Source of the DNA: an uncultured Candidatus Saccharibacteria bacterium
GTDB lineage: Bacteria > Patescibacteriota > Doudnabacteria > UBA920
Length of the DNA stretch: 64,000 nucleotides
Direction: 5' to 3'
NCBI GenBank assembly: GCA_964642585.1
Contig: CAZXPB010000001.1
Span: 3,733-67,732, forward strand
Each line of letters begins with the position of its first letter. Positions within the stretch are counted from its first letter, which is position 1. This document shows positions 2,219 through 64,000 of the stretch, piece by piece. Below the pieces are notes generated by a model that saw only the letters and a list, made by a program, of their open reading frames with translations, did no database searches and had not been told where the DNA came from. The translations under genes were made by a program, and so were the position numbers.

Positions 2219-5200
2219 TTATGCTAGAGGAAGAGTCTGTTTGCGAAGGTTTTCTTCAGCAATATCAGCGTTAAAGCCAGTTCCAGCAGGAATTAGCTTA
2301 CCGATGATCACATTTTCCTTCAAACCTCTTAAATAGTCAGTCTTTCCAGTTACAGCCGCCTCAATTAGAACACGAGTTGTTTCTTGGAAAGATGCCGCCG
2401 CTAGAAAGCTTTCAGTAGATAGAGATATCTTAGTAATACCCATTAGAAGTTGTTCCGCTTCAATTAGATTTCGGCCTTCACCTTCAAGGAGTTCATTCAT
2501 TTCTTGCATCTTGGACTTATCTATCATATCACCTGGTGCAAAGTCTGAATCACCACCATTTACTACGCGCATCTTAGAGAACATTTGACGAGCAATAATT
2601 TCTACGTGCTTGTCGTGAATTTGTTGTCCTTGAGAAACGTAGATATCTTGAACTTCTTTTACCAAATATTTCTGAGCCGCTTCTACACCTTGTAGTTCTA
2701 ATACTTGATTTGGATTTAAGTTTCCTTCAGTAAGTGGTTGACCAGGGTAAACTAAATCACCATCTTTAACTGTTAGAGAGAAACCGCGAGGAATTACATA
2801 TTCTACTAATTCATCACCTTCATGGATAAGTTTAATTTGGTTTTCTTCAACTTTCGCAATGCCAGCCGCTTGTGCTTTTACTAAAGTACCAGCTTCATCT
2901 GTGTAAAGTGCATCCCCTACTGCAGTATGTGTACCATCTTTAATGATTGTCTGCGCGCCAGAAGGGAGACTCAGAATTTCAGAAGTAACATTTTCTCCTT
3001 CAATACGAACGATTTGTTCACGAGTTGGAGCAATAGTAATAGAAACTTTTCCTGCAATTTCAGATACAGCGGCCATACCTTTTGGTTCGCGTGCTTCAAA
3101 TAATTCTTCTACACGAGGAAGTCCTTGAGTAATATCACTTACAGAAGCAGATCCACCAGTGTGAAAAGTACGCATAGTAAGCTGTGTTCCCGGTTCACCA
3201 ATCGCTTGTGCCGCTACAATTCCTACAGCTGCACCAAGGTCAACCATTTTGTTGAAACCAAGGTCATAACCGTAACATAGACGACAGATACCACGAACTA
3301 GTTTACATTTTAGTACTGAACGGGATTTCACTTCTGTAATTCCACTTGCAGCAATTTGAGTAGCTGTTAATTCATCGATACCTTGATTACGCTTTACGAA
3401 AACTGTGCCATCTTCTGCTTTTACGTCTACTGCTGCTACACGGCCGAATAAACGGTTTTCAAAAGATTGATTCATCATTTCACTTTCTGCGAGTGTAATT
3501 GCATCATAATCTTTAGTACCACAATCTTCGGCGTTAATAACAACATCTTGGGCAACGTCAACAAGACGACGAGTTAAGTACCCAGCGTCAGCAGTACGAA
3601 GCGCAGTGTCTGACATACCTTTTCGAGAACCATGAGTTGAGATGAAATATTCTAACACACCGATTCCTTCTTTAAAGGAACCACGAACAGGAAGTTCAAT
3701 AGTACGACCGCCAGGGTTTACCACCAAACCTTTTAGACCAGACATTTGAGTAATCTGTGAGAAGGAACCACGAGCACCGCTAGACACGAAGTAGTTTACG
3801 CTTGAGTGAGGCAGTACAGTACCAACCACATCCTTAGCAATTTTTTCAGAAGCATCTGCCCAAATTTCTACAACACGGCCATAGCGTTCATCTTCGGTAA
3901 GCAAACCTTCAAGGAATTGTTCTTGAGTTGCTTGTACTTCTTTATCAGCAGCATCAAGCAAAGTGTATTTGGTATCTGGAACTGTTAAGTCATCCATACC
4001 CCAAGATAGTCCAGATTGCTTCATGTAGTAGAACCCGGTACGCTTAATTTCATCAATTAGTTCTGCAGTGCGTTCTGAACCAAACAAACGATACGCTTCA
4101 CGAAGAAGTTGCTGTAATTTCTTTTTATCAAAAGCATCGTTGCGGTATCCCATTTCTTTTGGAACAATCTTGTTGAAGATTAAACGACCAACGGATGTTT
4201 CTACTAGCTCAGTACTTTCGTTACCAATACGCACTTTAATTTGCGCTTGAATATGTACATGTTTGTTGTTGTAAGCCATGATCGCTTCTTGACTATCGGT
4301 AAACACTTTGCCTTCACCCTTCAAGCCTTCACGAATTTTTGTAATATAGTAACAACCTACCACAGCATCTTTGTCAGGAGTCATAACTGGTTGACCAGAA
4401 GCAGGCTTCAGCAAGTTGTGAGAAGATACCATGATTTCTTTAGCTTCTTTTTGCGCCGCTTCAGTCAGTGGGACGTGAACAGCCATCTGGTCACCATCAA
4501 AGTCAGCGTTAAACGCTGCACAAACCATTGGGTGAAGTTGAATTGCTTTACCTTCAATAAGCACCGGTTGAAAGGCCTGGAAACCAAGTCTGTGCAAGGT
4601 AGGAGCGCGATTTAGAAGCACATAGTGATCTTTAGTTACTTCTTCAAGAATATCCCACACTTCTGTTCGGCTTTGTTCAATAAGTCGACTAGCTGAGCGA
4701 ACATTGTGAGCATACTCACGAGAAATTAATTTAGAAATTACAAACGGCTTGAAAAGTTCCAAAGCCATTGCTTTTGGAAGTCCACATTGATGCAGCTTCA
4801 AATTTGGTCCCACCACAATTACAGAACGACCAGAATAGTCTACACGCTTACCAAGCAAGTTTTGACGGAAACGACCTTGCTTCCCCTTAAGCATGTCTGC
4901 TAAAGAACGAAGCTTGCGCTTTTGTCCTGTGCTAGCCGTAACTTCTTTGCCATGGCGAACAGAGTTGTCGATTAAAGCATCTACCGCTTCTTGCAGCATA
5001 CGCTTTTCATTACGAGTAATAACTTCTGGTGATTTAATTTCCAAAAGTTTCTTTAGACGATTGTTTCGGTTAATAACACGGCGGTACAAATCGTTCAAAT
5101 CAGATGCCGCAAAACGACCACCATCAAGTTGCACCATCGGACGAAGGTCTGGTGGAATAACTGGTAAGTGAGTAATTAACATCCATTCTGGACGAAGTCC

Positions 5201-47335: not shown

Positions 47336-47412
47336 TGGTGCGCGTGCATGGATTCGAACCATGGACCACAAAGGTATAAGCTTTGCGCTCTAACCAACTG
47401 AGCTACACGCGC
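47336..47412 (-). tRNA. tRNA-Ile with UAU anticodon (reads AUA), CCA encoded
   Basis: GCGCGTG/CACGCGC acceptor stem, D-arm GCTC-AGTTGGTTA-GAGC, anticodon stem CAAAG/CTTTG with loop CTTATAC (U33, anticodon TAT, A37), T-arm CATGG-TTCGAAT-CCATG, discriminator A, CCA. Confidence 0.85.
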
Positions 47413-50846: not shown

Positions 50847-51491
50847 TTAACGAAGTGGTTCTAGAGTAATGATTTGCATTTTCTCTGGATCCAAATCTTT
50901 TTTCTTGATAATTAATTTTTCCATTGATTCAGACTTGCCACCCATTTCTTTAATGAAGCCATCTGCTTTTTCGTAAGGAAGCTTGAGGCCGTCAATAGCG
51001 TAGTGGGATGGTATCACAATTTTAGCTTCAATCTCATGTGCAACTTTGCTTGCGTCCTTTGCAGTCATTACACTGTTGCCACCAACTGGCAAGATTAGAA
51101 TATCAATTTCACCAAGGTCGTCTAGATCGTCTTCTTTCATGTTGAACTCACGAATGTGGGTGAGGTCTAAAATACGGATATCTTCTGCTTCAATTAAGAT
51201 TGCTGAGACATAGCGGCCTTTGCCATCTTTGCCATCGTCTTGTTTCAAAGGGATTCCGGTAACAGTTACGCCTTTCAGGTCGTAGTCGCCTGGATCGCTC
51301 ATTAAGAATGGCTCCCCTGAGAAGCCAGAAGTGGCGGTGTAAAGCTTGTTGTTTTTCTCGGAAAGAATGATGATATCTGCTGCTCCGCGAGGCGGAGTGA
51401 GGCCGGATTCTTTGTCAAAAGGGTCAGTAATTACAGTAGCGTCTTTAGTGACAATCTTGAAGCTAGATAGGCCGAAATAGTGGATTTGCAT
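50847..51491 (-). CDS. metallo-beta-lactamase-fold metal-dependent hydrolase (UPF0173-like)
   Basis: MQIHYFGLSSFKIVTKDATVITDPFD N-terminus typical of this family. Confidence 0.7.
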   Translation of the reverse strand: MQIHYFGLSSFKIVTKDATVITDPFDKESGLTPPRGAADIIILSEKNNKLYTATSGFSGEPFLMSDPGDYDLKGVTVTGIPLKQDDGKDGKGRYVSAILIEAEDIRILDLTHIREFNMKEDDLDDLGEIDILILPVGGNSVMTAKDASKVAHEIEAKIVIPSHYAIDGLKLPYEKADGFIKEMGGKSESMEKLIIKKKDLDPEKMQIITLEPLR

Positions 51492-57720: not shown

Positions 57721-58081
57721 TTTTTAAATATCAACTCCTTATATCTATGGTAATAATCGCGAGGGGTTCAATCTTGGGTGCTATTCCCTGACTTTTACGA
57801 CCTAGATTTAATATTCTTAAGCTTTGACCTTGTTGGGGTTACTGCGATTAACAGCTTTTTTAGTCTAGTTTTGCCTATATTTGGGCTAAAAGCTCGCATA
57901 TAGGCTATAAAAAAGACTGCTCAAAGCAGTACCTTACAAATACATTATAGCAGTTTTGGGGGGTAAATACAAGCCATTTTAGGTCGTTTTAGGCTTAAAT
58001 AAGCCAAATAACGTTTTTTTAGGCTTGGGAATGGGCTGAATTGGCATACAACTCCGCTTATTTAAAAGGGGTTTGGTTTTT

Positions 58082-58112
58082 GATGGTGTTCCAAAGTACA
58101 GGATGTTAGGAT
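58082..58112 (-). repeat. 31-nt conserved element (copy A) immediately 3' of the Nudix-1 stop codon
   Basis: Minus-strand reading TCCTAACATCCTGTACTTTGGAACACCATCA followed by AAAAAC; matches copy B at 58551-58584. Confidence 0.6.
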
Positions 58113-58507
58113 TTATCATTTGCAAAGTTTTTAACCCATTCGCCACGTAATTTTAAATTATTAAGTTTTTCAACAGGAAACCACTTGGCATCAAGAAGGT
58201 CATCTCCAGGAATTAAATTCCCTGAAGTGATCTTGGCTTTAAAAATAGTTAAGGTTACTTGCTTGTTGTGGAATTCACTCAAGCATTTTAATTCCTTGCC
58301 TGTCATTGTTAGAGTATATTTTTTACCCAGACTTACGATGTAGCCAGTTTCTTCTTTTGTTTCTCTACTAGCTCCTTCTGCTAATGTTTCATTCTTTTCT
58401 AATGAGCCTATTGGTAATGACCATAACCCGTTCGCGGCAGTGTGCGATTCCTGAACTAATAATACCTGACTATTTTTGTTAACTAATGTTCCTGCAAATT
58501 GCATCAT
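58106..58507 (-). CDS. Nudix hydrolase
   Basis: Nudix box GSLEKNETLAEGASRETKEETGY; leaderless start with extended -10. Confidence 0.85.
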   Translation of the reverse strand: MMQFAGTLVNKNSQVLLVQESHTAANGLWSLPIGSLEKNETLAEGASRETKEETGYIVSLGKKYTLTMTGKELKCLSEFHNKQVTLTIFKAKITSGNLIPGDDLLDAKWFPVEKLNNLKLRGEWVKNFANDKS

Positions 58508-58549
58508 AAACCTAGTATAACAAAAAACTCCCCTTTAGGGAGAGCTTTT
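58508..58549 (-). promoter_or_regulatory. terminator hairpin (ctccc-taaa-gggag + T6) immediately followed by extended -10 promoter TGtTATACT, 6 nt from the Nudix-1 ATG
   Basis: Minus-strand reading ...aaaaagctctccctaaaggggagttttttgttatactaggtttATG. Confidence 0.6.
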
Positions 58550-58550
58550 T

Positions 58551-58584
58551 GATGGAGCTCCATAGTACAGGACGTTAGAACGTC
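58551..58584 (-). repeat. 31-nt conserved element (copy B) immediately 3' of the small Zn-ribbon protein stop codon
   Basis: Minus-strand reading (GACG)TCTAACGTCCTGTACTATGGAGCTCCATCA + AAAAAG; ~80% identical to copy A. Confidence 0.6.
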
Positions 58585-58886
58585 TATTTCACAATATCAG
58601 CAGATACAATTTTCTTAGTAATAGCTCCTACGAATACTCTGTAAGCTGGTCTACTTTCTTTCTTATAGATAATCTTACTACCTAGCACTTCTTTGCACTT
58701 AGTGCAGATTAAGTCATTACTCTTAGGCGCAGTTGGGTAAATACGGTCTAAATATAAACGTTTGATTATTCCTGGGCCATCTTTCTGATAATAGAATAAA
58801 TGATGTCCCGCTCTTTCACATTTAATATCCAACAACCTAGATGTTCCACCTCTATTCTTTCTGTATTTGTCCTGTTTAAGTTTCAT
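58584..58886 (-). CDS. small basic zinc-ribbon protein (C-x3-HH...C-x2-C), hypothetical
   Basis: 100 aa, 11-nt overlap with upstream Nudix-2 gene; K/R rich. Confidence 0.55.
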   Translation of the reverse strand: MKLKQDKYRKNRGGTSRLLDIKCERAGHHLFYYQKDGPGIIKRLYLDRIYPTAPKSNDLICTKCKEVLGSKIIYKKESRPAYRVFVGAITKKIVSADIVK

Positions 58887-59418
58887 TAACCAATTTAGTT
58901 AATAGTTCTTTGATCTCTTTAAATCCTGTTGGTCTGCTTGACCATTGATCGGGCTTTTCTTCTATGGAGTTTAAGACATCATCCAAAGACATCCATTTTA
59001 CTCCTTGCACTTCTCCGTCATTAAAGATTAAGTCATTCGTGTCGCCTGTAAAGTTGTAGAAGTATACATTAGTAAATTCTCTATTTGGTAACTTATCTCT
59101 TTTGTGAATAGGTCCCACGGTGACTTGTTCGGTAGAGATATCAAGACCTGTTTCTTCTTTCAGTTCATTTTTCAGGGCTTCTTCAAGGGTTTCTCCAGCC
59201 TTTACATGACCACCAAACCTAGTATCCCACTTATCAGGATTTAAGTCCTTGGTTTTGGAACGATGATGTACTAACAATTCAATAACTTCGTTATTAAGTC
59301 GGTAGAAGTAAATATGTACAGTTCGATGCCATAATCCTTGGGTATGAGCTTCAGAACGTAGTCTTTTCTCACCGGTTAAATTGCCCGATTCATCTAGTAT
59401 GTCAAAATATTCTTCCAT
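58876..59418 (-). CDS. Nudix hydrolase (second copy)
   Basis: Nudix box GGHVKAGETLEEALKNELKEETGL; extended -10 TGtTATACT 6 nt before ATG. Confidence 0.85.
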   Translation of the reverse strand: MEEYFDILDESGNLTGEKRLRSEAHTQGLWHRTVHIYFYRLNNEVIELLVHHRSKTKDLNPDKWDTRFGGHVKAGETLEEALKNELKEETGLDISTEQVTVGPIHKRDKLPNREFTNVYFYNFTGDTNDLIFNDGEVQGVKWMSLDDVLNSIEEKPDQWSSRPTGFKEIKELLTKLVNET

Positions 59419-59475
59419 AAAACTAGTATAACAAAAAAACTTTCTTTAAGGTTTAATCAGCTTTCCCATTAATGA

Positions 59476-61779
59476 TTAAGAAGAAGTAGTTGAGGTGCAA
59501 ATTGTCTCAAGCCGTGAATAATGATCTTCATCAGCCAACTCAATAAATTTTAGTACATTTAGCGCAATGGGTTTTGCTTCGAGCATTGATGCAGATATAC
59601 CGCGAGAGAAATCTTGACCGTGAGAATATTCGTGCAAAAACTTCACAATAAAATCTCCAGTTCCTTTCATTCTATCATCGTTACTCGTTACGAATCTACT
59701 CATTACAATACTATTAAATTCTTCAGTTGTTGCACATGACCACTTAAACCCAGCAAAATATTCTAAGATCTTTCGAGCTATATTCGCAACAAGTGGTTCG
59801 TCGAGCTGTCGTGTACCCTTAGCGAATTGATAAAGTCTACAGAATAAATACTGATACTCACTTTTATATTCTTTTAGTAAGTTAGGCAGATTTTCTATTT
59901 TGACTTCTTGGACTTCGCTTTCTTTATCGTGAGTAATCAGAAACATATTAGACTCATCTTTGTATTGTCTACTCATAAGCCAATCCCGAATAAGATTAAA
60001 GAAATCGAAGTTGTGAGTAAGTACTATTAATTGACCCACATCCTTTAAATGTCTTTTTATTAAACCCGCTGTGCGGAACAAGAATATACTGTCTTGACTG
60101 TCGACTGGATCATCTAAAACAACAAGGCAATTAGCTTTATCGCTATCATTTTCTTCCAGTTTAATTAAGAAATAAACTAAAGCTAAAACACTTTCCTCTC
60201 CCTCGCTAAGATGTTTGGCATCTTTTCCTCTTCTTTTCAGAATGTAAGATATTTCTCCGTCATCTGACTCATTTACCTCCAGATAGATAAGTGATTCCCC
60301 GAAAAATTCTTTTAATAGTGAATTAATTTTATCCACCGCATCAGATGCGTTTGTCAAAGACGCTTTTAAGACTTTAATATCTAGGAGTGTTTTGTTTCGT
60401 TCTTCTTTAGCTTTTTCTATTTCTGCCGTTAGTCTAATTACCTCACTTTTATTTTTAAAGTAGTTTTTGTTCTCTAGAATAGAAGCAATTGTATGAAGTT
60501 CAATACTTTCTGCAGCCGCTTTCACCTCTTCTGATATAGATTGCACTCTAATATTGTGCTCACTAACTATCTTTTCTATTGTTTTAAGAGATTCATTCGC
60601 TTTTTCTATATCTTCTCTGGGATATTCAATTGGTTCGTGCTTCTTCTCGTGATTGTGTAAATCAACCTGCTTATCTTTCAACTGCGTTATGATTAGGTTG
60701 ATTTGGTTTTGTATATTTTGAACGTGTTGTGATAATTCTTTCTTAGCAGCAGCACATTCTTTGCTTGGCTCGGGAAACAAAAGAGATGGTTCTAGTTCTG
60801 GAAGTTTCTCATTATTATCATTTCCAGCTAACAAATTAATAGTTTCTTGTATTTGTAATTTCGCTTTTTGTAGTTCGTCGGTAAAGAAACCACCTAACTG
60901 TACTAATAGATCATCTGGTAAAACGCCTTTGCAAAATTGGCATTCTTTTAACCCTCTTTGCTTATGTATTTTGTAACCAGCTTCTATCCAATCCTTTAAC
61001 TCACCATCTTCCTTTAATCCTTCAATGTTTTGAAAAGTAATTGAAGTGTTTAATAAACCATTGGCACTATCGAACAATTCTTCAAAATCCTCAATAGTGT
61101 TAAATTTAATATTTATCTCGGTCTTCTCATTTTTTATTACTTCTTTTTTAGAATCAACTTCGCTAGGTTCAGCAATAATAAGTGAGTTTAAGTTAGCTTC
61201 TGTGATAACCCCAGTTTCTAAACGTTTGTCTACCTTTAATTTATTATAACTTCGTCCGTAATATGTATCATCCCCTAATGGTGTATTGGTAAATTGTTTA
61301 GGAACTTCTCGGCCAGCTTGAGTTAATACATCGTCGGGATTAGGTATTTGTTTAAGTTGTTCTTCGAGTGTTTGTATTGTATTTTGATTAGTCTGGTAGT
61401 TTGATTCGTGTTGTTCAATTTGTTGTTGGGCTGTTACATTCTCTTTACCTAATATTACAATCTTTTTTGCTTGGGAATCCTCAAAGGATAAATTTTCTGT
61501 AATAAAGTCTTCGTTAAATACCTTAACGTTAAGTCCATTAGAAGTTATGTCTGTTTGCTTAATTGGAGATGCGTCTGTTTCTATGGAAAATTCAACTGAT
61601 TTCAAATCATCGATGTGAACATCCTTTCTTTCAAGAAAATTAAAGATTCTGGATATAGTAGTTTTTCCAGATCCGTTCCACCCATAAATTAGACCGTACT
61701 TCTTAAAGTCGTCCCCTATCCATTTAAACGCATCGAATGCGTCAATGTGTGTTATCTGTTTTATCTTCTTTATTAGCAT
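59476..61779 (-). CDS. RloC/PrrC-like ABC-type ATPase with coiled-coil CxxC (zinc-hook-like) insertion and C-terminal putative anticodon-nuclease domain
   Basis: Walker A GWNGSGKTT; ~350-aa coiled-coil insert containing CQFCKG; Walker B/D-loop LVVLDDPVDS; H-loop LTHN. C-terminal ARKILEYF...(≈40 aa)...H fits the R-x3-E...H anticodon-nuclease triad pattern (recalled from memory). Start taken at first ATG (MLIKKIK); GTG at 61809 is an alternative. Confidence 0.65.
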   Translation of the reverse strand: MLIKKIKQITHIDAFDAFKWIGDDFKKYGLIYGWNGSGKTTISRIFNFLERKDVHIDDLKSVEFSIETDASPIKQTDITSNGLNVKVFNEDFITENLSFEDSQAKKIVILGKENVTAQQQIEQHESNYQTNQNTIQTLEEQLKQIPNPDDVLTQAGREVPKQFTNTPLGDDTYYGRSYNKLKVDKRLETGVITEANLNSLIIAEPSEVDSKKEVIKNEKTEINIKFNTIEDFEELFDSANGLLNTSITFQNIEGLKEDGELKDWIEAGYKIHKQRGLKECQFCKGVLPDDLLVQLGGFFTDELQKAKLQIQETINLLAGNDNNEKLPELEPSLLFPEPSKECAAAKKELSQHVQNIQNQINLIITQLKDKQVDLHNHEKKHEPIEYPREDIEKANESLKTIEKIVSEHNIRVQSISEEVKAAAESIELHTIASILENKNYFKNKSEVIRLTAEIEKAKEERNKTLLDIKVLKASLTNASDAVDKINSLLKEFFGESLIYLEVNESDDGEISYILKRRGKDAKHLSEGEESVLALVYFLIKLEENDSDKANCLVVLDDPVDSQDSIFLFRTAGLIKRHLKDVGQLIVLTHNFDFFNLIRDWLMSRQYKDESNMFLITHDKESEVQEVKIENLPNLLKEYKSEYQYLFCRLYQFAKGTRQLDEPLVANIARKILEYFAGFKWSCATTEEFNSIVMSRFVTSNDDRMKGTGDFIVKFLHEYSHGQDFSRGISASMLEAKPIALNVLKFIELADEDHYSRLETICTSTTSS

Positions 61780-61818
61780 AATTGAGCTTATCTTAGCAGT
61801 TTTGTTCACTTATTAGAA

Positions 61819-61828
61819 GTGGTATAAT
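61819..61828 (+). promoter_or_regulatory. extended -10 promoter TGgTATAAT; predicted TSS ~61835
   Basis: Read directly; divergent from the RloC-like gene. Confidence 0.5.
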
Positions 61829-61835
61829 ATACGTA

Positions 61836-62024
61836 CAATTAAATGTCCTAACCCCACCTAAGACGTGGGTATGGAAACTAAAACCAATGAAGAATACTGA
61901 ACCCTGCGTTCAGCTATCTTCATTGGTCATGTCTGGAAACGGGCATGGGATCTCACGATCCGGCTGGCGTGGGGCTTTGTGTTAAAGAACCCATGTCGGC
62001 TCTAACTAATTAAGATTGTCGATC
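61836..62024 (+). promoter_or_regulatory. GC-rich highly structured 5' leader (~190 nt): candidate riboswitch or cis-regulatory RNA, class unassigned
   Basis: Long irregular helix ccaatgaagaata[ctgaac-cctgc-gttcag]ctatcttcattgg; ggatc-tcac-gatcc; catggg...cccatg closing helix. GC content far above the flanking DNA. Confidence 0.4.
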
Positions 62025-62453
62025 ATGGAAAAAGAAAACAAGATAGTATATTGGTTACGTTGGTTCGCTGTATTCCCTGGAGCTCTAATCGGTGGTTTTA
62101 TATCTAGTATGATTGCTAGTTTCCCGATACATTGGATCCTAGTCCTGAAAGCGTCATCTAATCCTGATGGAGCAACTGCTAGCAATTTTGAAACAATTGA
62201 GTTAGCTATTACATCATTTGTATTTACTGCTCTGTATATACATTTAGGAACTAAAATAGCACCTACAGGTAAAAAGTATATAACCGCCTTAGCACTTATT
62301 GTTGCTTTAATAATATTGGTAATCATACTAGCTACATCTTTCCATTTGGGAATGAGTAGTATTTCAAGAATGATTGCTGCGATATTAGGCCTGATGTATG
62401 CTACTTGGCAAGCTAAGATTGAAGAAAGAAAAATTACTAAGGATAATTCATAG
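62025..62453 (+). CDS. small 4-TM membrane protein, hypothetical (strand ambiguous with antisense ORF 62006-62467)
   Basis: ATG at 62025 (ORF track used TTG at 62016). Chosen over the antisense ORF because of the promoter/leader context and 6-nt coupling to the next + gene. Confidence 0.5.
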   Translation: MEKENKIVYWLRWFAVFPGALIGGFISSMIASFPIHWILVLKASSNPDGATASNFETIELAITSFVFTALYIHLGTKIAPTGKKYITALALIVALIILVIILATSFHLGMSSISRMIAAILGLMYATWQAKIEERKITKDNS

Positions 62454-62459
62454 CTAACA

Positions 62460-62879
62460 ATGAACATCTATCTAGATATTGACGGTGTAATTATTACTAA
62501 AGACAAAAAGATAGCTAATGGCTTAGTAGAGTTTTTAGAATACGCTACACATAATCACACATGTTTCTGGCTCACAACTCACTGTAAAAATGATGCAAAT
62601 CGTGTCGAAGAACATATTAAACCCATACTACCAGAACATGTTTTTAAGCTAGTTCAACGGGTGAAACCAAACTCATGGACGGACTACAAAACTGACGGCA
62701 TTAATTTTGACGAAGATTTTATGTGGTTAGACGACAACCTATTTCTCAAAGAAAAGGATGTTTTACTTAAGAACAACGCTTTGTCCAAGCTAGAACTGAT
62801 CGACTTAAGAGCGAATCCAAATCAGTTGTTAGATATACTAAAAAAGCTGAAATCAAAAACTCGGATAACGTCATATTAG
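62460..62879 (+). CDS. mini HAD-superfamily phosphatase (NT5C/PNKP-phosphatase-like)
   Basis: Motif I LDIDGVI, motif IV WLDDN; 139 aa. Confidence 0.6.
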   Translation: MNIYLDIDGVIITKDKKIANGLVEFLEYATHNHTCFWLTTHCKNDANRVEEHIKPILPEHVFKLVQRVKPNSWTDYKTDGINFDEDFMWLDDNLFLKEKDVLLKNNALSKLELIDLRANPNQLLDILKKLKSKTRITSY

Positions 62880-63030
62880 TGCATATTTGTTGAGCAGGTT
62901 TGGGGTCATAAAAGGTCATATTTTTAATATTGCTGGAAATAGTGATCTCTGAATTAATGTAATCGCTGTGTATTTCGCGCAAAACTCGCTCAAATTTAAG
63001 CGTTTCCGTCGGATCCTTACAAATACCTAT

Positions 63031-63059
63031 TGACTAGCAAAATTCGCTAAAGTACAATG
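63031..63059 (+). promoter_or_regulatory. promoter TTGACT-17-TACAAT with ~140-nt hairpin-rich leader ending in aacaca-ctcga-tgtgtt-UUUAUU just before the wHTH gene
   Basis: Read directly. Confidence 0.45.
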
Positions 63060-63206
63060 CTTTTAATGGAATAAGTAAATCCGAGAAGCCACCTCAGATT
63101 TCGGCATCAAATGCCCCAGGTAAAAAACTCGTGCTAACCAAGGCACCACAATTAAGTTTTTTATCGGGGTGTTATTTATTAACAACACACTCGATGTGTT
63201 TTTATT

Positions 63207-63554
63207 ATGCCTAAAATTAAGCACAAATTTATAAGAGTACACTGGGTAAGTTTAAAAACTTTTAATCTTACACCTACCGAAGTACTGCTATTAAACCTTG
63301 TACAAGGTTTATCTAATAACAAACATAAAGCTTGCTACGCCTCTAAGAAAGCATTGGGAATAGAATTAAATGTGGCTACAAGTACGATTTATAACACTAT
63401 TGATAGTTTGCAAAGGAAAGGACTTTTAAGATCTAAAAGAATTTCTATGAAAGAGGCTCATTTGCAGACCACAAGTAAATGGCAAAGTCATTTAAATCAG
63501 GTTCGATCAGATAATGAACCATTACCAGATGAATGGTCAGACATTGATAACTAA
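63207..63554 (+). CDS. winged-HTH DNA-binding protein resembling phage/plasmid replication-initiator or DnaD-like N-terminal domains
   Basis: …TPTEVLLLNLVQGLSNNKHKACYASKKALGIELNVATSTIYNTIDSLQRKGLLRSKR… typical wHTH pattern. Confidence 0.5.
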   Translation: MPKIKHKFIRVHWVSLKTFNLTPTEVLLLNLVQGLSNNKHKACYASKKALGIELNVATSTIYNTIDSLQRKGLLRSKRISMKEAHLQTTSKWQSHLNQVRSDNEPLPDEWSDIDN

Positions 63555-63570
63555 TTTTCTAATATCCAAA

Positions 63571-63621
63571 TTCTAGAATTAACAGTCTTAATTCTAGAAA
63601 ATTACTCTCCATAATCTAGAA
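63571..63621. repeat. three phased palindromic TTCTAGAA-type repeats (iteron/operator-like)
   Basis: aaaTTCTAGAAtt (63571), aaTTCTAGAAaa (63592), aaTCTAGAAta (63615); spacing 21-22 bp. Confidence 0.55.
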
Positions 63622-63726
63622 TATTAGCATCCAGATTTTAGAGACAATATATATAACAATACAAATAATTAATATTTATAAGTAATAGCTTTACGAAATC
63701 AATTCGTAAAGAACTCAAACTAATAA

Positions 63727-63888
63727 TATGCAATTAACAGATAAACAAATACAAGAATATATAGATCTACATAAAAAAAAGTTTGGAGAAACTATAAGTC
63801 GTGAAGAAGCTATTGTCCAAGCTACTAAATTATTGGATTTAGTTAAACTTGTTTATAAACCAATTAAGAAAGATTCTGATAAAAGATA
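63727..63888 (+). CDS. small hypothetical protein (53 aa)
   Basis: MQLTDKQIQEYIDLHKKKFGETISREEAIVQATKLLDLVKLVYKPIKKDSDKR; below ORF-track cutoff; weakly supported. Confidence 0.3.
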
Positions 63889-64000
63889 GTTTGTCCCCCG
63901 TGCCAAGAGGAATCGTATCGGTGATAATTTAAATAACAACTATCCCGTGCCTAAGTAACAATTTGAGTTGATAATTCCTTTATTGGAATAGTCTTTATCT

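Follow-up and report, generated by a model that had tools for sequence, protein, structure and literature searches.

What process places the same short non-coding sequence directly behind the stop codons of two unrelated genes? The question arises from a 64-kb stretch of contig CAZXPB010000001.1, derived from an uncultured bacterium labelled Candidatus Saccharibacteria (the window, as used below, means this stretch at its full length, with positions numbered from its first letter). A preliminary description of it pointed out an element of about 31 nt that recurs on the minus strand next to a Nudix gene, and named as candidates a recombination or cassette-boundary site, an RNA processing or stability element and a protein-binding site. 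On the strength of sequence comparisons we argue that one copy of the element, copy A, is very probably the attR junction produced when a large serine recombinase (LSR) integrated a genomic island at the 3' end of a tRNA-Gly(GCC) gene, and that the other, copy B, may be a decayed junction of an earlier integration, in which case the two together would mark a tandem array.

The repeat exists on the minus strand as described and is closer than the roughly 80% identity first claimed: copy A (58578-58546, -) and copy B (58109-58077, -) agree without gaps at 29 of 33 positions (88%; repeat family D2). With a degenerate 27-mer built on their shared core and up to three mismatches allowed, the two copies were the only sites in the window, and 100 dinucleotide-preserving shuffles yielded no match. 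The proteins encoded upstream of the copies have unrelated C-termini, and the two Nudix proteins of the region, Nudix-1 and Nudix-2, resemble each other only within the Nudix box (12/26 identities), which bears out the earlier view that no simple coding duplication is involved. Thus the repeat is real, non-coding and not due to chance. The statement that both copies begin within or right at a stop codon holds for copy B, which overlaps the TAA of Nudix-1 (58108-58106; ..CCTAAC..), and only loosely for copy A, which starts 2-5 nt past the TAG (58586-58584) of a zinc-ribbon-like open reading frame (ORF), near the stop codon and not within it.

The origin of copy A can be read from closely related strains. 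Using the 229-aa protein encoded beside the locus as synteny anchor, we retrieved three species-mate contigs (L008, L009 and L010), which are 99.7-99.9% identical to the window from position 51031 (56785 for L010, a short contig) to exactly 58558, with 99.9% identity spanning 7.5 kb in the near-identical strains, and which are unrelated to the window beyond that position. The breakpoint lies inside copy A. To its left, these contigs and the 95%-identical L011 carry a tRNA-Gly(GCC) gene, the 3' end of which reads ..GGTTCGATTCCCCTTGGCCGCTCCA (also given as ..TTGGCCGCTCCA). ARAGORN places the tRNA-Gly at 5095-5168 of L008, its last 6 nt aligning to window positions 58558-58553, and predicts a tRNA-Gly ending in GCTCCA in L008, L009, L011, L016 and L027. 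These six bases comprise the end of the acceptor stem, the discriminator T and CCA. The right part of copy A with its flank reads GCTCCA TCAAAAAGCTCTCCCTAAAGGGGAGTTTTTT, and in L008, L011 and L016 this trailer, with its terminator, is found behind an intact tRNA-Gly. Since an intact tRNA-Gly stands at the breakpoint in the sister strains, the right part of copy A is the end of tRNA-Gly with its native trailer and terminator; no tRNA-Gly was found within the window itself. The three contigs and the window appear to represent the empty attB and the occupied site within one species, and copy A appears to be an attR hybrid of island arm, tRNA-Gly end and native trailer with terminator. GCTCCA is common to attB, to attL (in L027 and L030) and to attR (in L013 and L030), and is the sole sequence that all three types of site share; the motif GTTCTAACGTC was named beside it as a target for locating the crossover.

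An exact-pattern scan of 185,579 species-representative genomes returned six matches, five of them due to chance and one from a true relative (L006), a metagenome-assembled genome labelled Candidatus Saccharibacteria. Scans of the same kind gave only one chance match in the metagenome contigs of the Joint Genome Institute (JGI), on an unrelated Bacteroidetes-like contig, and no match in the viral contigs of IMG/VR, and exact-protein look-ups of the window Nudix-1 and zinc-ribbon proteins retrieved no record. With two copies in the 64-kb window, both at one locus, the element is not a dispersed repeat of the repetitive extragenic palindrome (REP) or miniature inverted-repeat transposable element (MITE) kind. 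In the relative (L006 and its extended contig L013), a 72-nt stretch comprising copy A and the terminator is 96% identical to the window, and the neighbouring 229-aa protein is 65% identical at the amino acid level. Unlike in the window, the element sits 25 nt past a 256-aa methyltransferase gene in L006, and a placement defined by reference to stop codons is hence not supported. The left arm of copy A is identical in L006 and L013 and recognisably conserved in the attR of another genome, L030; alignment of the L030 arm with that of the window gives the consensus GTyCTrACGTCyyGyACTAT. According to the preliminary description, a chance resemblance would be indicated if further copies were lacking and relatives did not conserve the element; conservation of the arm was seen in two other genomes. 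Derivation of the arm from the tRNA as a copied pseudo-T-arm was considered and rejected, the by-eye matches (7/12 for the window and L013, 4/12 for L030) being too weak.

The L006 contig, extended as L013 and L027, carries a homologous island of 11.9 kb together with a recombinase. In L027 a DHH phosphoesterase gene is followed by tRNA-Leu, tRNA-Val, tRNA-Phe and tRNA-Gly and then by attL, in which GCTCCA is joined to CATGGAATAAACACTCTCTAAAGGAGTG..; a 557-aa ORF on the opposite strand and the cargo genes come next, and the island closes with the arm, GCTCCA and the native trailer. The 557-aa protein (L027 11371-13044, -) has Resolvase, Recombinase and Zn_ribbon_recom domains and is an LSR distantly homologous to the SPbeta, A118 and TP901-1 serine integrases, its identity to characterised integrases remaining below 28%. 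The genes of its two nearest homologues with usable contigs, L029 (61% identity) and L030 (55%), likewise lie antisense to tRNA-Gly(GCC) and directly against its 3' end, in the same geometry as in L027, and both loci have a terminator-like hairpin in the P' arm. The L030 island measures 7.25 kb and ends at its far side in GTCCTGACGTCTCGCACTATCCC, GCTCCA and the trailer-terminator; its shared core is 9 bp long, compared with 6 bp elsewhere. Relatives of the LSR in IMG/VR were limited to two distant matches (34-35% identity).

The reading frame of these recombinases runs into the tRNA. No stop codon interrupts the LSR ORF ahead of the crossover site, and integrated copies end in ..WSG, with or without an antisense tRNA peptide. 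This C-terminal W-S-G, invariant among 12 aligned LSRs, is encoded by TGGAGCGG, which reads antisense to ..CCGCTCCA. When the C-termini of the best 120 of about 3,500 LSR homologues were surveyed, 105 were found to end in xSG or in xSG plus an antisense T-arm peptide, which means that these ORFs run into a tRNA 3' end; three of the 120 end in WSS-LVMDVRT-like tails, which correspond to the translated P arm and suggest excised or tandem forms. Because the ORF is open across the crossover site, integration would change the C-terminal tail of the enzyme. Four independent loci, together with the C-terminal signature, point to a clade that uses the 3' end of tRNA-Gly, and the comparisons indirectly indicate a Patescibacteria clade of LSRs that sit at tRNA 3' ends with their reading frame passing through the crossover.

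The island in the window is probably an element of the same type. Window positions 63637-64000 are 80% identical to, and collinear with, L027 13093-13465, a segment whose end lies 49 nt short of the LSR start codon, and window 62952-63221 matches L027 13888-14158; both stretches are 80-82% identical and correspond to the recombinase-proximal end of the L027 island. As the window closes with ~360 nt that match the LSR-adjacent DNA of L027 at 80% identity, its island would be cut about 50 nt before its own LSR gene, and a total length of about 7.2 kb is predicted, at least 5.4 kb of which is visible. In the model we favour, an LSR would integrate a small genomic island at the very 3' terminus of the chromosomal tRNA-Gly(GCC) gene. 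The left 23 nt of copy A would serve as the recognition arm (P) of the recombinase, so that the earlier suggestion of a protein-binding site pointed in the right direction, with binding of the recombinase to the arm as the predicted interaction, and GCTCCA would be the crossover core common to island and tRNA. The matching attL, consisting of the intact tRNA-Gly, GCTCCA, the P' arm of the island and the LSR gene, is expected just past the end of the window. The position of the element behind stop codons would follow from cargo genes being packed up to the island end.

Copy B is present and identical in the island-free strains L008, L009 and L010, which do not have copy A, and is therefore the older of the two; Nudix-1 is present in these strains as well. 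L011 carries at the position of copy B a variant with an intact core, TCCCGTACCATGAA GCTCCA TCAAAAAAACC, and upstream of it a 139-aa gene and a Peptidase_S51 gene in place of Nudix-1. The simplest interpretation of copy B is a relic attR from a previous integration event at this tRNA. That event would have given rise to a tandem array in which Nudix-1 is the surviving cargo of the older element, and the zinc-ribbon-like ORF, Nudix-2 and an AAA_13 candidate defence gene belong to the newer one. The island of L013 is laid out in parallel fashion, as an 8.4-kb LSR-bearing unit, an internal copy of the arm, a 3.5-kb unit without LSR and a terminal copy of the arm. The internal copy (L013 4954-4979, equal to L006 5740-5769, -; TTCTAACGTCCTGTACTATGGAGC) is identical over 24 nt, lies inside the 11.9-kb island and may mark where two accreted elements meet. 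That integrative elements can accumulate in tandem at a single att site is well established (PMC7192596).

Additionally, we found a second pair of direct repeats (D1), absent from the preliminary description, at 58540-58505 and 59451-59416 (-), directly 5' of the start codons of Nudix-1 and Nudix-2 (81% over 36 nt). Its core is a module of the form T-run + TGTTATACTAG(G/T)TTT + ATG (minus strand, 58505-58526 and 59416-59437), and a near-identical module precedes the unrelated 139-aa gene in L011 (about 1320-1354). An extended -10-like box lies 6 nt from the ATG and no Shine-Dalgarno sequence is present, which suggests leaderless mRNAs for Nudix-1, Nudix-2 and the L011 gene. The module was rejected as a generic promoter consensus: the exact 22-mer occurs at only two sites in the window, although extended -10 boxes near the ATG are found at other genes.

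Several observations weigh against the model of two successive LSR integrations. The window ends about 50 nt before the predicted LSR start, and both the LSR gene and attL would lie outside it. Dyad symmetry in the reconstructed attP and attB is weak, reaching at best 9-12 of 24 positions with no consistent axis. For the LI integrase the distal zinc-ribbon domain (ZD) motif of attB is displaced by 5 bp towards the centre relative to that of attP (PMC3783163). Among the four half-site comparisons made here, a corresponding +5 shift gave the best match in a single one, the left half-site of the window/L013 pair (10/19); the right half-site of this pair peaks at +3 (16/19) and L030 has no peak. 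Since neither the dyad symmetry nor the 5-bp ZD shift is demonstrable, the crossover is placed only within the 6-bp core. With regard to the tandem array, the internal arm copy in L013 is followed by ACTATTTTGAACCC, that is by GCACTA instead of GCTCCA. Moreover, LSRs do not normally reuse attL or attR, and a second integration requires a site that still works as attB. The native-looking trailer and terminator upstream of Nudix-1 are shared by L016 and L013, which have no copy B, and this makes the order of events uncertain. Finally, the trailer/terminator/promoter module that precedes Nudix-1 recurs before Nudix-2, inside the island.

On a different view, promoter module, gene or genes and 33-nt site form integron-like cassettes that move singly, with Nudix-1 free to be excised or inserted between copies A and B. 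The module (T-run + TGTTATACTAG.TTTATG) and the 3' arm do bracket three cargos, namely Nudix-1, Nudix-2 with the zinc-ribbon-like ORF, and the 139-aa and S51 genes of L011, and the cargo differs between L008 and L011 with both boundaries kept. Nevertheless, no strain was seen in which the Nudix-1 unit is precisely deleted between A and B, and no relic of arm or core is detectable upstream of Nudix-2, to the left of its module, where the local alignment was matched by 2418 of 5000 shuffles. Furthermore, the sites share no attC-type hairpin, the core of copy B is mutated to ACACCA, and the arm is linked to no recombinase other than an LSR, which mobilises entire islands of 7-12 kb. We consider single-cassette mobility decidedly unlikely. 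The recombination site envisaged in the preliminary description is thus retained in the form of site-specific recombinase junctions, and not as the two ends of a Nudix-1 cassette, given that copy A would form the attR of another island, at least 5.4 kb long, and that copy B occurs without copy A in island-free strains.

The location of both copies on the coding strand right after stop codons, and in copy A a small palindrome (ATGGAGCTCCAT) followed by a terminator, could also be expected of a 3'-untranslated RNA element selected downstream of coding regions for processing, stability or termination. However, Rfam gave no match over 58000-58600 at E values up to 10, and the folding z-scores of -1.7 (A), +0.2 (B) and +0.6 (L030) reveal no common structure. 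The palindrome, which copy B lacks, arises where the arm meets the tRNA end, the terminator is part of the tRNA-Gly gene in strains without the island, and the element occupies a single locus in the genomes that have it, so that very little credence can be given to an RNA element. Nor does a local tandem duplication, by replication slippage or unequal crossing-over and with later divergence or replacement of the coding parts, account for the locus without site-specific recombination, even though the D1 and D2 pairs follow each other in the same order and have the look of a duplicated unit. The Nudix proteins are not recent paralogues, the arm of copy A has a 100% identical counterpart in a distant genome, although the protein encoded next to it there reaches only 65% identity, and the breakpoint matches the 3' end of the tRNA gene to the base. 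The larger simple duplication that the preliminary description had allowed for is also contradicted by the sister strains with copy B and no copy A, and we judge such an origin to be highly improbable.

Integrative islands bounded by an att junction in a tRNA gene are a classical arrangement and a known kind of feature. Islands of the Islander/TIGER type at tRNA 3' ends (Williams 2002, as cited in PMC12884075; PMC7192596), target the 3' end of a tRNA and leave the tRNA intact, with the integrase gene proximal to it. Taken together with the homologous L027 island, in which the integrase gene is visible, the present locus resembles them in these respects as well as in the hybrid attL and attR with a shared core, the polymorphism between strains, the candidate defence cargo and the internal and putative relic att sites that tandem arrays leave behind. 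It differs in that an LSR would take the place of a tyrosine integrase and in that the core measures just 6 bp (9 bp in L030). At tRNA sites of tyrosine integrases the shared core is usually tens of bases long. No tyrosine recombinase was detected by Pfam among the larger ORFs of the visible window island, nor in the precomputed Pfam annotation of the L013/L027 and L030 islands. With the large serine integrases (SPbeta SprA/YokA, Listeria A118/LI, TP901-1, phiC31 and Bxb1) the system shares the Resolvase, Recombinase and zinc-ribbon domains, short and dissimilar attP and attB with a minimal common core, and an integrase gene beside attP. In contrast to the protein-coding genes targeted by those enzymes, the target here is a tRNA gene, and the recombinase ORF crosses the crossover site in more than 100 homologues. 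Targets of the t(m)RNA class were reported, as predicted cases, for 14 of 297 serine integrases, compared with 44.5% of tyrosine integrases, and their use by serine integrases was called previously unreported (PMC7192596). The same study describes small serine recombinases of the phiRSM type as a site-specific 'S-Core' clade of integrases of integrative genetic elements (IGEs; PMC7192596). These are likewise serine-family recombinases acting as site-specific integrases of an integrative element, but they are small and resolvase-like and have no Recombinase or zinc-ribbon domains, unlike the 530-560-aa LSRs found here. The target of phiRSM is a serine tRNA gene, which it enters at the 3' end. 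Integron attC cassettes are similar in their short gene units with a conserved recombination site directly after the stop codon; they differ in that neither an IntI-type tyrosine recombinase, among the ORFs named above, nor an attC-like imperfect-palindrome fold was seen here (copy B and the L030 site have no stable fold) and in that the repeated site, present in only two copies, is a hybrid of island arm and tRNA end. What is less usual is the combination of an LSR at a tRNA, a core consisting of just the terminal GCTCCA, an integrase ORF that spans the site, and a host from the Candidate Phyla Radiation (CPR).

Features of the window around the two repeat copies, with their positions and strands
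Feature	Position	Strand	Remarks
Copy B, degenerate core ACACCA + TCAAAAA, putative pseudo tRNA 3' end	58077..58089	-	directly adjoins the conserved 229-aa gene leader
Copy B, P-arm-like sequence ATCCTAACATCCTGTACTTTGGA, 23 nt	58090..58112	-	identical in L008, L009, L010; overlaps the Nudix-1 stop codon
Nudix-1, 133 aa	58106..58507	-	between copies A and B; Pfam NUDIX E 4.9e-17
T-run + TGTTATACTAGGTTT + ATG module, 22 nt, before Nudix-1	58505..58526	-	D1 repeat; two sites in the window
Native tRNA-Gly trailer TCAAAAAG + terminator hairpin (58542-58528) + T-run (putative B' side of attR)	58522..58552	-	terminator scan
Common core GCTCCA, last 6 nt of tRNA-Gly(GCC)	58553..58558	-	aligned to the tRNA-Gly end of L008
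Copy A, putative island-derived P arm GTTCTAACGTCCTGTACTATGGA, 23 nt	58559..58581	-	homology to L008/L009/L010 ends at 58558; arm found in L013/L006 and L030
Predicted integrated island body, cut by the window end	58559..64000		missing from 99.9%-identical strains
Zinc-ribbon-like ORF, 100 aa	58584-58886	-	island cargo
Nudix-2	58876-59418	-	island cargo
Second T-run/promoter module, before Nudix-2	59416..59451	-	inside the island; D1, 81% over 36 nt, 22/23 in the core
AAA_13 / PADLOC PDC-S06 protein, 777 aa	59476-61809	-	island cargo
LOOT RNA (RF03000)	61845-61961	+	inside the island
Two ORFs	62016-62453, 62460-62879	+	inside the island
HTH_36 protein	63207-63554	+	shared with the L027 island
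53-aa ORF	63728-63889	+	shared with the L027 island

With regard to cargo, PADLOC returned the candidate defence family PDC-S06 for the AAA_13 protein (E 7e-135) and, as weak matches, PDC-S07 for both Nudix proteins (E 7e-13 and 9e-8); by gene content the island looks like a small defence island. The LOOT RNA (71 bits, gathering threshold 46.4) lies directly upstream of the start of the AAA_13/PDC-S06 gene, and no paper on the LOOT motif was found in the literature searched.

Next to copy B, a non-coding leader of about 330 nt (58070-57721, -) precedes the 229-aa ORF (57720-57031). The leader is conserved in all relatives though the protein is only 65-80% identical. Within it lie two AAGCC..GGCTT hairpins (58026-57971), a promoter-like site TTG..TATAAT, the terminator hairpin GTAAGGTACTGCTTTGAGCAGTCTTTTTTAT (57930-57916), which is nearly invariant, and then conserved blocks up to ATAGATATAAGGAGTTG..ATG. 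It had no Rfam match above noise and is a candidate for a small RNA or an attenuator-type regulatory leader. The tRNA cluster upstream of tRNA-Gly is rearranged between close strains (L008 4094-4984; L011 75-1306): L008 has a LAGLIDADG-like gene (4166-4834, -) between an inverted tRNA-Leu(GAG) and tRNA-Val, and in L011 a 231-aa gene lies between tRNA-Val and tRNA-Gly, with no tRNA-Phe called. Elsewhere in the window we noted a tRNA-Ile with the anticodon TAT (UAU) at 47336-47412 (-), conserved at L013 17835-17911 and L017 16736-16812. A tRNA-Ile(UAU) is an uncommon way for bacteria to read AUA.

A more far-reaching interpretation, which we regard as rather unlikely, is that a large CPR clade of LSRs is dedicated to the CCA end of tRNA-Gly, that the exchange of tails (..WSS-IVQDVRT.. 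in the excised form, ..WSG-stop in the integrated form) acts as a switch and that an occupied site can be used again. If this were true, the C-terminal tail swap could be a built-in switch on the activity or directionality of the integrase, and a P' arm that mimics the native trailer and terminator would keep the occupied site usable, leading to a stepwise, integron-like accretion of defence and Nudix units at one tRNA. For the locus itself, the finding turns an unexplained element behind stop codons into a defined boundary of a probable mobile element, which would delimit a strain-variable island with a candidate phage-defence gene (PDC-S06) in a CPR bacterium with a reduced genome. Knowledge of the LSR clade would sharpen the prediction of island boundaries in metagenome-assembled genomes. 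Moreover, with their 6-bp core, universally conserved target and compact arm, such LSRs could become integration tools for the Patescibacteria, in which genetic work is difficult.

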